DNA of 35,555 nucleotides, from the IMG/VR virus record IMGVR_UViG_3300017766_001320, positions 1 to 35,555 of that record. One strand, 5' to 3'. The position numbers and the translations under genes were made by a program. Source of the stretch: a virus (lineage: Duplodnaviria; Caudoviricetes). The notes under the pieces were generated by a model. The model saw only the letters and a list, made by a program, of their open reading frames with translations, ran no database searches and was not told the origin of the DNA. Below, piece by piece: positions 9,368 through 20,624 of this stretch; within the stretch, counting starts at the first letter, position 1; each line of letters starts with the position of its first letter.

Positions 9368-9955
9368 ATGATTATATGTAAATATTGTAAAAACGAAAAT
9401 GTCTCTTCGGCACACATTCGTTGGTGTGTGGAAAATCCGAAAAGAGAAATCAATAGACAAAAAATGTTGGACACAAAACGATCAAATGTCCAAGTTCCTT
9501 GGAATAAAGGAATCAAATGGGAAAAAAAGAATAAGTTTTCAAAAGGAATGACAGGTAAAAATCATTCTAACGAAACTAAAAAAATATTGAAACAAAAGGC
9601 ATTATCTTCAGACCATAGAAGATTGAAACGTAAAGATATAGAATATAATGGCATTCTGTTAGATTCTACATGGGAATTATATCTAGCCCAACGACTTGAT
9701 GAACAAAACATAAAATGGATTAGACCTAATCCTATAAAATGGATAGATAAAGGCGGAAATATACACAACTACTTTCCTGACTTCTATTTACCTGAATATG
9801 ATCTATATTTGGATCCTAAAAATCCAATAGCATATAAAGTTCAAAGTGAAAAGATAGAATGTCTAAAAGAACAGTTGACAAATCTACACATTCTATGTAG
9901 TATAGAAGAAATAGAAAACTTTACCCCCGTAATGGCCGCGTCTTCTAAACGATAG
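9368..9955 (+). CDS. putative homing endonuclease (Zn finger, NUMOD3-like, PD-(D/E)XK)
   Basis: CKYC..H..WC, GKNHSNETKKIL, DSTWE...YFPDFYL...LDPK. Confidence 0.8.
   Translation: MIICKYCKNENVSSAHIRWCVENPKREINRQKMLDTKRSNVQVPWNKGIKWEKKNKFSKGMTGKNHSNETKKILKQKALSSDHRRLKRKDIEYNGILLDSTWELYLAQRLDEQNIKWIRPNPIKWIDKGGNIHNYFPDFYLPEYDLYLDPKNPIAYKVQSEKIECLKEQLTNLHILCSIEEIENFTPVMAASSKR
9875..9903 (+). promoter_or_regulatory. sigma70 promoter embedded in endonuclease ORF
   Basis: TTGACA-N17-TAGTAT, 20 nt before the tRNA-Arg-like gene. Confidence 0.65.
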
Positions 9956-10001
9956 GTGCATAACTGGAATAATGCAGGTTCAAGTCCTGTCGGGGGTGCC
10001 A
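9923..10001 (+). tRNA. atypical tRNA-Arg(UCU), D-armless with enlarged variable region
   Basis: Acceptor ACCCCCG/CGGGGGT-GCCA, loop CT-TCT-AA, T arm GCAGG-TTCAAGT-CCTGT. Confidence 0.7.
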
Positions 10002-10451: not shown

Positions 10452-10542
10452 GGGAGTGGCTGTTGGTACAGGGGAAAGTCTTATAAACTTTTAGCGGCAG
10501 ATTACCGTTTTCCACAGTGTTCAAATCACTGCACTCCTACCA
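10452..10542 (+). tRNA. atypical tRNA with UAU anticodon and long variable arm
   Basis: GGGAGTG/CACTCCT-ACCA; AAAGT-CTTATAA-ACTTT; T arm CAGTG-TTCAAAT-CACTG. Confidence 0.75.
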
Positions 10543-10833: not shown

Positions 10834-10926
10834 ATGAATACAAAACATTACTTCCAAAATATGAATACGAAATCTGAACGACCATGCTATGGTATTGGTA
10901 GTTCATGGGTTCTTGTGAGAATGTAG
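10834..10926 (+). CDS. putative attenuator leader peptide MNTKHYFQNMNTKSERPCYGIGSSWVLVRM
   Basis: ATG at predicted +1 (leaderless); 18 different amino acids in 30 codons; 3' end overlaps antiterminator strand. Confidence 0.65.
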   Translation: MNTKHYFQNMNTKSERPCYGIGSSWVLVRM

Positions 10927-10956
10927 ATACTCTTAGGTCTACATACTAAGTTCAAG

Positions 10957-10985
10957 AACCCTAGATGAAAGTCTAGGGTTTTTTT
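10957..10985 (+). terminator. intrinsic terminator (attenuator)
   Basis: AACCCTAGAT-GAAA-GTCTAGGGTT followed by T run. Confidence 0.9.
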
Positions 10986-10990
10986 ATATC

Positions 10991-11003
10991 CGCTGTTTGA
11001 CAA
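10991..11003 (+). promoter_or_regulatory. boxA-like antitermination element
   Basis: CGCTGTTTGACAA vs rrn/lambda boxA (T/C)GCTCTTTAACA. Confidence 0.5.
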
Positions 11004-11010
11004 TTAAATG

Positions 11011-11203
11011 CAACTTTTTCCGGCTTTAGAGAAACCGGACGCATTGCACCGCGATAGCAATGGCGAGAAGACTTGTGCAAAAGTCTCTCGCACCTTATCT
11101 TGGGCACACTGTTAACAAATCAGTCTGGGAAGACTTACGAGGCTATACTAGTTAAATTTAGCCCGTTCGTAGAAAAATCTACAGTGTGCCTTAGATAGAG
11201 TTG
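11011..11203 (+). ncRNA. candidate multi-stem ncRNA
   Basis: TCCGG/CCGGA, CATTGC/GCAATG, GCGAGA-AGACTT/AAGTCT-CTCGC, GGCACACTGT/ACAGTGTGCC stems; no credible ORF. Confidence 0.55.
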
Positions 11204-11255: not shown

Positions 11256-11347
11256 GGGGAGTGCAAGTAAGGACTGGCTGGTGCCGTCGGGACGCTGTAA
11301 ACGTCTTCCTTATAGGCAAGAGGTTCGATTCCGTCCATTCCCCACCA
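11256..11347 (+). tRNA. atypical tRNA-Tyr(GUA)
   Basis: GGACG-CTGTAAA-CGTCT; 8-bp acceptor GGGGAGTG/CATTCCCC; bulged T stem; CCA. Confidence 0.8.
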
Positions 11348-11671: not shown

Positions 11672-11781
11672 CAAAAGGGGAGAAGGCGGAATAGGCGCGC
11701 TTCGTTCCAAATCCGCAAATAGGAACAAAGCATTTTGCGGATGCTTAAGTTGAGGTTCAAGTCCTCACTTCTCCTCTTTTG
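11672..11781 (+). ncRNA. tRNA-like RNA with pseudoknot in place of anticodon arm, no CCA
   Basis: 14-bp terminal stem, T arm TGAGG-TTCAAGT-CCTCA, ATCCGCAAA/TTTGCGGAT crossing GTTCC/GGAAC. Confidence 0.65.
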
Positions 11782-15146: not shown

Positions 15147-15236
15147 GGAGTGCATATCTAGTCGGGGATACTAGCACCGCCTTGAAAGCGGTTGGAGCCT
15201 TCGGGCCAGGGGTTCGATTCCGCCATCACTCCGCCA
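15147..15236 (+). tRNA. atypical tRNA-Ser(UGA)
   Basis: ACCGC-CTTGAAA-GCGGT; long variable arm with cUUCGg; bulged acceptor and T stems; GCCA. Confidence 0.85.
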
Positions 15237-19377: not shown

Positions 19378-20130
19378 ATGGCTAAGATGCATGAACTTCT
19401 CGCAGTTGAATCGGCGGTAACTGCAAACTTCCAGCGCGATCTAGAAGAGACACTAAAGGTACTAGCACGACCAGATCATTTCCAGAAGCAGGTAGCACAA
19501 AAGACTTTCTTCGCTGAAGAAGACCAGAGGCTCAACGTTTCTGAAACAAAGGACATTACCACTACAGTTGGTGAGCGTCTAAATTGGTTTTCTGGTGCAG
19601 CAGAAAAGTATCTAGATGTTATTATTCAGAAGGACAAGACAAACCAGAAGGCTGTCGCCGACATTGCTCTTGACGATGGTACTGTAGTTGCTGCGGATGT
19701 ACCAGCAACCACACTTCTGGCACTTGAAACAAAGTTGCAAGACTTGCGGAAGGTTTTCATTGCTGTTCCTACTCTACCTTCGGGTATTATGTGGGAATGG
19801 GATGCTGCTGAGAACCTTTGGAAGACAAAGGAACCTGTTGTTACTTTCCAGACTAAGAAGACTGCTAAGGCGGTTGTTCTTTATGAAGCGACCAAGGAGC
19901 ATCCTGCTCAGGTTAAGGAAGTCTTTGAAGACGTTCCTGTTGCAAAGATTACCAAAGATACCTATAACGGTATGGTAACTTCTGCACAGAAGGCAGAGGT
20001 TCTAGGTCGTCTAGATTCTCTCTTGAAGGCTGTTAAGCAGGCACGTCAACGCGCCAACAACGTTGATGCAGACAAGACTAAGATTGGTCCTGCTATTACT
20101 AAGTTTCTTCTTGGTGATATCAAGAAGTAA
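19378..20130 (+). CDS. conserved helical protein of unknown function (recalled as DUF7873-like, unverified)
   Basis: 250 aa; MAKMHELLAVE, VPATTLLALE, ATKEHPAQV, AVKQARQRAN; GGAG SD. Confidence 0.85.
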   Translation: MAKMHELLAVESAVTANFQRDLEETLKVLARPDHFQKQVAQKTFFAEEDQRLNVSETKDITTTVGERLNWFSGAAEKYLDVIIQKDKTNQKAVADIALDDGTVVAADVPATTLLALETKLQDLRKVFIAVPTLPSGIMWEWDAAENLWKTKEPVVTFQTKKTAKAVVLYEATKEHPAQVKEVFEDVPVAKITKDTYNGMVTSAQKAEVLGRLDSLLKAVKQARQRANNVDADKTKIGPAITKFLLGDIKK

Positions 20131-20134
20131 GAGT

Positions 20135-20561
20135 TTGGGTGGGAAATTTCCCACCCAATATTGGGCGTACCTGAGGGGGTACATAGTTCGTCGTTAAACT
20201 CTTAATCAAACTAAAATGCGGAACTACTCCATCTGCAATTGCAGATGTCCGTTTATCGTTTAGCCCAGAAGTTTAACAAACACTATAGGGTTCTTGAGCA
20301 TATAGACAATTATCTAACAGACGATGGGGGTTCGATTCCCTCATCCCTCTCCACAGATGTATCGCGGTATATCTTTGATGAGGGATTAGGTTAATGGTAA
20401 ACCGTCTGATTGAAACTTATGTTTATATGTCTAAAAACAAGTGACTAGAGTTCCCATGCTCGTCATGTTGGAACTACCCGAAAGTGATGTCATCTGACAG
20501 AGACTGTGAATCTCTAAACCAGACCACGGGGTGTGCAGTCGGATATGCTGCACACCTTTTT
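20135..20561 (+). ncRNA. large structured RNA containing a circularly permuted tRNA module (20318-20408)
   Basis: Order is T arm, acceptor 3' strand + TCCA, linker hairpin, acceptor 5' strand, D arm; multiple outer stems; no ORF. Confidence 0.75.
20530..20561 (+). terminator. intrinsic terminator
   Basis: GGTGTGCAG/CTGCACACC followed by TTTTT. Confidence 0.88.
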
Positions 20562-20565
20562 CTTT

Positions 20566-20624
20566 AAAAAATAATACTTGACATCCTCAAAAGAAATAAC
20601 TATAATATATACAACTGAGAAATT
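20566..20624 (+). repeat. 59-bp promoter-containing direct repeat, copy 2
   Basis: TTGACA-N17-TATAAT consensus. Confidence 0.92.

Follow-up and report, generated by a model that had tools for sequence, protein, structure and literature searches.

The closest described counterpart in build of the RNA reported here is YrlA (RF02553), a Ro60-linked RNA of ~100-150 nt. In the accounts drawn on here, the T arm of YrlA is followed by a closed acceptor stem and then by the D arm, the Levitt pair covaries, and the open anticodon stem runs into a protein-binding handle made of the flanks (PMC4201824; 10.1101/312249). YrlA of M. smegmatis is described as being cleaved by RNase P and gaining CCA (PMC4201824). 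Two-piece tmRNA (RF01849-51, RF04321), which is described as being cut by tRNA-processing enzymes (PMC11915505), carries the acceptor 3' strand, CCA, an intervening sequence and the acceptor 5' strand in succession. In red algae and Thermofilum, according to 10.1101/312249, permuted tRNA genes place the 3' half before the 5' half, and their acceptor is initially closed into a loop. The same source, discussing Burroughs and Aravind 2016, mentions b7a-tRNA, a predicted tRNA-like RNA beside RtcB and a Band-7 protein.

The RNA found downstream of a DUF7873 gene in the window (the whole stretch of phage DNA analysed here, 35,555 nt) showed the T arm, closed acceptor and D arm in the YrlA order, with the tRNA tertiary contacts present, and its anticodon stem was likewise open and ran into a handle. 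Unlike YrlA, it was linked to DUF7873, with Ro60 not adjacent, and was ~300-450 nt long; its handle consisted of two blocks of 6-nt repeats, its CCA was usually encoded, and it was extended by a module that carries an anticodon and by a terminal hairpin. No Ro60 gene lay within ~4 kb of it in the window, the distance by which YrlA is recognised. The RF02553 model, with a gathering score of 69 bits, left the window domain unmatched at E<=1 and gave homologous domains 19-37 bits. The motif GNCGAAN0-1G was found 5' of the domain in 2 of 142 cases (2.5 in shuffled sequences) and its relaxed form in 3 of 142 (5.0 shuffled), a weak test, since the literal motif was also missing from 5/5 TROVE-linked RNAs. 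The succession of acceptor strands, CCA and intervening sequence was that of two-piece tmRNA, but the RNA was without the G3.U70 pair and the tag frame and had a full D arm and anticodon stem. Like b7a-tRNA, with which it was compared by description only, it is a tRNA-like RNA beside a non-Ro60 protein, and b7a-tRNA may resemble its module B, whereas RtcB and Band-7 did not recur at the present loci (one Band-7 gene near L010). In contrast to the permuted tRNA genes, conserved anticodon-loop halves were missing at the open end, and therefore no working tRNA can form. In build the permuted mimic is YrlA-like, yet by Ro60 linkage and by the Rfam threshold it falls outside YrlA, and it is part of an undescribed multi-domain RNA linked to DUF7873; a literature search found no account of a DUF7873-RNA system and no paper under the name DUF7873.

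The permuted tRNA-like domain and its acceptor end

The window is a contig of a T4-like phage (completeness 22%) that encodes DNA polymerase (~51% identical to cyanophage enzymes), UvsX, helicase and primase and carries 24 tRNA genes. Other tRNA-like features were seen on its plus strand: a 91-nt tRNA that has a long variable arm and reads UAU at its anticodon (10452-10542), a tRNA-Tyr-like gene with a GUA loop, a long variable arm, an ACCA end and an odd D region (11256-11347; no ARAGORN or Rfam call), and three tRNA-like genes without an ARAGORN call (9923-9998, 11679-11775 and 15147-15232), whose Rfam scores were weak (25.8 bits, 25.6 bits and, with the tRNA-Sec model, 36.5 bits). Between tRNA groups, a non-coding stretch (10840-11200, +) showed several hairpins by eye and no Rfam match.

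Table 1. Features of the DUF7873 gene and the RNA element downstream of it (positions in the window)
Feature	Position	Strand	Remarks
DUF7873 gene (PF25283)	19378..20130	+	250 aa; Pfam E 5.6e-67; probable partner of the RNA
G+C hairpin 3' of the stop codon	20135..20158	+	possible processing site or minus-strand terminator
Repeat block B1	20184..20219	+	U every 6 nt, five successive units; divergent; by eye
Variable hairpin between B1 and B2	20230..20247	+	
Repeat block B2, CCC core	20251..20276	+	~50 nt 5' of the T arm; by eye
Closing helix, 5' strand	20298..20308	+	below the anticodon stem; own vs foreign flank pairing
Domain A, circularly permuted tRNA-like domain	20318..20408	+	open anticodon stem; fold, scan, covariation
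Domain A: CAGAC	20318-22	+	read from sequence
Domain A: GAT	20323-25	+	read from sequence
Domain A: T arm	20326-42	+	read from sequence
Domain A: acceptor 3' strand	20343-49	+	7-bp acceptor
Domain A: U (discriminator)	20350	+	
Domain A: CCA	20351-53	+	
Domain A: linker	20354-79	+	26 nt
Domain A: acceptor 5' strand	20380-86	+	followed by TA
Domain A: D arm	20389-20403	+	
Domain A: GTCTG	20404-08	+	
Closing helix, 3' strand	20420..20430	+	
Module B, reduced form	20493..20523	+	anticodon stem-loop, free, above an outer stem of 4 bp
Terminal hairpin and U tract	20528..20558	+	terminator-like; loop type NGGN(A/T)A

The initial annotation had read a circularly permuted tRNA in the window, and each of its elements was found where it had been placed, base for base (Table 1). 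Domain A begins 188 nt 3' of the DUF7873 stop codon. Its minimum-energy fold was the permuted cloverleaf with all the helices that had been claimed (-35.4 kcal/mol, z -2.5), and an equally good energy was reached by 2 of 200 shuffles. A structural scan of the window returned a single permuted cloverleaf, none on the minus strand and none in 300 Markov resamples. Refined numbering placed the anticodon stem at 27-30/40-43 (TCTG/CAGA, 4 bp), and the 4-nt variable region ended in U48, giving the Levitt pair A15-U48. The pair at 3:70 was G3-C70, with U73, in agreement with the reported absence of G3.U70. The larger element around domain A (about 20168-20558) and its separate anticodon stem-loop had been overlooked. 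In one metatranscriptome, a 230-nt contig spanned 20057-20285 and left domain A uncovered, and is uninformative on transcription or ends.

The covariation in homologues on which the permuted cloverleaf had been staked was present: 93.4% of the cells were paired in 53 sequences, with two-sided changes in 20 of 21 pairs. A MAFFT alignment of the window domain with 52 short-linker domains gave a covariation score of 0.854, compared with at most 0.196 for slid controls. The pairing of the T, acceptor and D helices is partly circular because these helices defined the search, yet their sequences were free to vary. Features independent of the search were counted in 134 domains dereplicated at 85%. 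The Levitt pair 15:48, which was not a search term, was G-C in 83, A-U in 43 and A-C in 7 of 133, and the anticodon-stem pairs 27:43-30:40, likewise not searched for, were formed in 98-101 of the 134, with 38-47% expected. NCCA was encoded in 95 of the 134, CCA not being a search term either, and the acceptor linkers measured 3 to 64 nt. As a permuted tRNA mimic, domain A is real and strongly conserved, and the permuted domain tolerates large linker inserts. Linkers of 104-168 nt were seen in L131, L132, L141, L143 and L023, some of them full of inverted 6-nt repeats.

A processed, two-piece RNA that is charged and serves as donor or acceptor of an amino acid would fit the 7-bp acceptor and the conserved NCCA, and in a subclass with a 13:22 mismatch A73 occurred in 19 of 27 domains, a Leu-like combination. 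The family as a whole argues otherwise. Among 142 domains all four discriminators occurred (U in 45, A in 44, G in 40 and C in 13), G3.U70 was present in 7, and the identity sets of the Gly and Ala synthetases were found in few domains (Gly-like 4; Ala-like, G3.U70 with A73, 3). The G1/A2/U73 of the window does not fit the identity rule for Gly or that for Ala, and a tag frame was found in 0 of 126 loci. A charged adaptor is thus quite improbable, and of the interpretation first given to the domain the structural part was borne out by the homologues, whereas charging gained no support as a family trait. Two-piece processing of the permuted RNA is plausible, and on balance probable by analogy, because of the 7-bp acceptor, the NCCA encoded in those 95 domains and the precedent described for M. 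smegmatis YrlA (PMC4201824).

The DUF7873-linked element and its handle

Loci of DUF7873 relatives were gathered from cultured phages (11 of 75 records) and from viral contigs, genomes and metagenomes, these being limited to the best 80 out of 176 matches and the best 80 out of 464. In total, 233 records matched, and 179 loci, the window (L153) among them, were kept after requiring at least 450 nt downstream and removing identical copies; counts over loci and genomes are taken as they stand, relatedness included. A permuted domain was found within 600 nt downstream of DUF7873 in 126 of the 179 (viral 54/69, isolates 9/11, genomes 25/54, metagenomes 38/45), compared with 2/162 upstream, 5/156 further downstream and 1/179 on the reverse strands. 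A relaxed scan over 900 nt recovered 12 of the 53 misses (138/179 in all), with 0/179 on the reverse strands. An artefact of tandem tRNAs was rejected: just 1 of 143 domain matches overlapped a real tRNA, and it was removed. In 9 of 9 complete phage records the domain beside DUF7873 was the best match of model R1, which was built partly from DUF7873-adjacent loci (the 65 bits of the window, high by construction, were disregarded); in a tenth, PA-SR01, the best match reached only 33 bits and lay ~770 nt after the DUF7873 gene. A divergent DUF7873 clade (L241-L243, L249; E about 1e-28 to 1e-33) retained the RNA and the repeats, its inspected copies were without module B, and both clades occurred in some genomes.

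Comparison of the loci indicates that domain A belongs to a larger conserved, non-coding element of ~390 nt, which accompanies DUF7873. From 5' to 3' the element comprises B1, the variable hairpin, B2 with its CCC core, the closing helix, domain A, module B and the terminal hairpin. Folding of the 440-nt gap after the DUF7873 gene of the window beat 100/100 shuffles (z -4.9). The repeats have a period of 6 nt with A and U at set positions. With a matrix trained on the same 126 regions that it scores, a repeat score of at least 10 bits was obtained in 67% of these regions; the figure was 2% for 630 shuffles, 5% for the 3' flanks and 7% for 124 upstream regions. Matches to the B2 core were found in 72 of 126 loci (8.9 in shuffled sequences), and 65 of the 72 were sited 46-58 nt 5' of the T arm. 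Flanks paired better with their own partner than with a foreign one in 122 of 126 loci, in support of the closing helix. The family matrix gave the repeats of the window only 2.1 bits and its B2 was not detected by an HMM built from the 125 other loci, which is why its two blocks were placed by eye and position. The NGGN(A/T)A terminal loop was counted in 60 of 126 loci (raw count), and a second permuted domain was present in 15 loci, in several of them occupying the position of the variable hairpin. No Rfam family reached its gathering score on the element of the window or on 20 homologous loci. A coding frame in the repeats was ruled out by eye from the stop codons and 1-nt indels in the core across loci. 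Directly 3' of the terminator of the window, a sigma-70 promoter matching the consensus at 12/12 positions (20578-20606, +) precedes a tRNA-Trp and a ferritin/Dps-like gene.

The RNA was retained even where it did not adjoin the gene. Five of five Cytophagales-order genomes with DUF7873 but without an adjacent RNA carried 2-3 whole copies elsewhere, which lay 76-152 kb from DUF7873 in the four genomes with both on one contig and in tandem ~520 nt apart in 4 of the 5, with differing anticodon loops. Since free-standing copies, 2-3 per genome and unlike in their anticodon loops, occur in several Cytophagales, the RNA acts in trans; a purely cis-acting 3' UTR was ruled out by these copies. In 80 chosen genomes, strong domains were found in 29/30 with DUF7873, 12/25 with TROVE only (there mostly a few kb or less from TROVE) and 3/25 with neither. 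Among the top 30 loci, the repeats were present in 25/25 from genomes with DUF7873, of which 15 did not adjoin the gene and at least one, L262, belonged to the training set, and in 0/5 from TROVE-only genomes, which had a different common handle. The handle thus tracks the protein, and this is the main reason to suppose that DUF7873 binds it. The common 5' handle of these TROVE-linked RNAs of the Cytophagales order (L273, L278, L286, L287 and L290) reads GYCGUA ... UUACUUCG.

The same results bear on whether the RNA is a genuine YrlA whose Ro60 is encoded in a missing part of an incomplete genome. The T arm-acceptor stem-D arm order is the same, the YrlA model does give the homologous domains some score, and the window contig represents less than a quarter of its genome. 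Nevertheless, no TROVE was found in the 35.5-kb contig, of 9 complete phage records bearing the module 8 had none, the scores stay below the gathering score with the window domain unmatched, and the TROVE-linked RNAs have another handle, without repeats; we therefore regard this explanation as very improbable. In Rhizobium phage RHph_TM30 (L234, MN988521.1 139475-141332), a Ro60 gene is preceded by two permuted tRNA-like RNAs (36-37 bits, below the YrlA cut-off) and lies ~6 kb from the DUF7873 module.

An RNA repair or decay scaffold resembling Ro60-YrlA, with DUF7873 on the handle and the tRNA-like domains tethering a ligase, a CCA-adding enzyme or an exonuclease, is somewhat better placed, although still unlikely. 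The combination of a handle with a tRNA elbow is common to YrlA in the accounts available (PMC4201824; 10.1101/312249), and the module is often sited within phage tRNA arrays. The element was chromosomal in 44 of 251 Cytophagales-order genomes, and TROVE co-occurred with DUF7873 there (27/44 vs 30/207 genomes; odds ratio 9.4, with lineage and genome size left in). Against such a scaffold, the only neighbours to recur at more than 6 of the 179 loci were two clusters of long ORFs on the opposite strand (at 36 and 21 loci), which we read as shadow frames; without a recurrent neighbour there is no shared ligase. A scaffold would also leave the variable anticodon loops unexplained.

Module B, the DUF7873 protein and the proposed particle

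In 54 of 126 loci, module B is a tRNA-like domain in normal order that begins 48-70 nt after domain A. Its acceptor end is poorly kept: NCCA was present in 3/54 and a complete set of 7 acceptor pairs in 14/54, whereas of 109 ordinary tRNAs from these loci 77 had the former and 94 the latter. The anticodon loop retained U33 in 39/54 and R37 in 45/54. A free anticodon stem-loop was found in 23 of the 72 loci without a full domain B (1.0 expected from shuffles), so that one or the other form was detected in 77 of 126 loci and neither in 49. The window has the reduced form, with a 5-bp stem (20499-20515) and a 7-nt loop containing U33, GUG and A37. ARAGORN calls module B an ordinary tRNA at many loci, and annotations are therefore affected. 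In the pair L014 and L015, domain A is identical and the proteins are 98% identical, whereas the anticodons differ; tandem paralogues likewise differ in anticodon.

Because the anticodon of L014 and L015 changes while domain A stays the same, domain A and module B are not halves of one tRNA. This weighs against a permuted tRNA gene whose product is spliced, alone or with module B, to give a functional tRNA, and against a two-piece tmRNA that has degenerated, explanations to which we assign hardly any likelihood. They could draw on the U-GAA-A immediately after the stem in the window and on a weak match to beta_tmRNA, the best among the Rfam tmRNA models (22.3 bits, gathering score 84). However, downstream of the anticodon stem U33 was present in 56/134 and a purine at 37 in 78/134 domains, near background, the anticodon of module B changes while the acceptor is constant, and a pattern test found no tag frame in the 126 loci. 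ARAGORN found no tmRNA in the window. The analogy with tmRNA that had been drawn for the domain thus survives for processing and fails for the tag function. A standard tmRNA, unannotated in the record, was seen in Gordonia phage Phendrix besides the DUF7873 RNA (L009 1072-1600).

DUF7873 is a family of 2505 clusters at 50% identity, found above cut-off in only 1/401 genomes of the phylum of genome G001. The AlphaFold model of the window protein was confident (pLDDT 84.6, pTM 0.70) and showed a helical bundle with long β-hairpins. No significant match was obtained with Foldseek against the PDB (best E 0.025), in the VIA fold search (best Z 7.4, on helical bundles), in BFVD (best E 1.3e-3, TM 0.14) or in a PDB sequence search (best E 0.16), and the sole named family among the Atlas matches was DUF7873 itself; the null searches of PDB, VIA, BFVD and Atlas do not establish a new fold. 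The protein may resemble DIP1984/DUF6847; the PF20935 profile gave a single match, below threshold, in 5 genomes. Its net charge is near zero, and no known RNA-binding fold was recognised. The family has the invariant polar residues H5, E6, N89, E117, K205, R223 and N227. These residues, the two-part make-up of protein and RNA and the retention of the RNA away from the gene would suit a guard or toxin-antitoxin system, in which the RNA restrains DUF7873 until the bait is cut or modified and the effector is freed, leading to dormancy or superinfection exclusion. We consider this improbable: the PDB, VIA and BFVD searches matched no known toxin fold, which is weak evidence, and many carriers are large, apparently lytic phages.

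The element and DUF7873 probably form an RNA-protein particle, judging from the features apparent on comparison of sequences, namely the fold, the covariation, the DUF7873 link, the repeat handle, the second anticodon module and the stand-alone copies. The RNA would be co-transcribed with the DUF7873 gene, or have its own promoter where it stands alone, and several DUF7873 subunits would sit on the 6-nt repeats, one per unit. By analogy with YrlA, the linker would be lost to RNase P and 3' trimming; the two pieces left would stay together through the acceptor, anticodon-stem and closing helices, and their CCA end would be free and mostly uncharged. Domain A would offer an elbow and CCA without an anticodon, and module B an anticodon loop without a working acceptor, so that translation would be impossible. 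Toxins and defence enzymes aiming at CCA ends or anticodon loops would bind the bait, and the real tRNAs would be spared. Phage tRNAs have been described as countering tRNA-cutting defences (PMC10264068; PMC7824862). This full decoy mechanism, in which the two vulnerable ends of a tRNA would be displayed separately as bait for tRNA-attacking enzymes, is possible but tentative. It is favoured over the rival explanations because the shape of the anticodon loop is kept, the triplet varies, paralogues multiply the loop and it stands apart from every chargeable end. Several points count against it. It leaves the 49 loci without an anticodon loop unexplained, and a pure anti-defence role does not explain the chromosomal element in those Cytophagales-order genomes. 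A multiple-turnover nuclease is poorly inhibited by bait that it can cleave. Phages have also been argued to avoid susceptible anticodons (PMC10264068). The anticodon variation, which rests on few close pairs, could be drift.

More broadly, and at somewhat under even likelihood, DUF7873 and its RNA may constitute a new, Ro60-independent class of RNP, in which the protein, whose fold has no match, would polymerise on the 6-nt handle, and a dismantled tRNA, shown as an elbow with CCA and an interchangeable anticodon loop, would serve as a tunable decoy or tripwire against toxins and defences that attack tRNA; the same guarded judgement covers, jointly, the proposal that this class is common to phages of several host phyla and to bacteria with arrays of differing anticodons. 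The element is carried by two cultured phages whose hosts are harmless, Arthrobacter phage Racecar and Gordonia phage Phendrix, and by a complete Bernardetia genome, and is therefore directly testable. For the large, unstudied DUF7873 family, it provides a testable candidate for an RNA partner. At least two handles occur among permuted tRNA mimics, a Ro60-linked and a DUF7873-linked one. Should the decoy or the guard explanation prove true, the module would be a new counter to tRNA-targeting immunity and would give a reason for the many pseudo-tRNAs in phage tRNA arrays.
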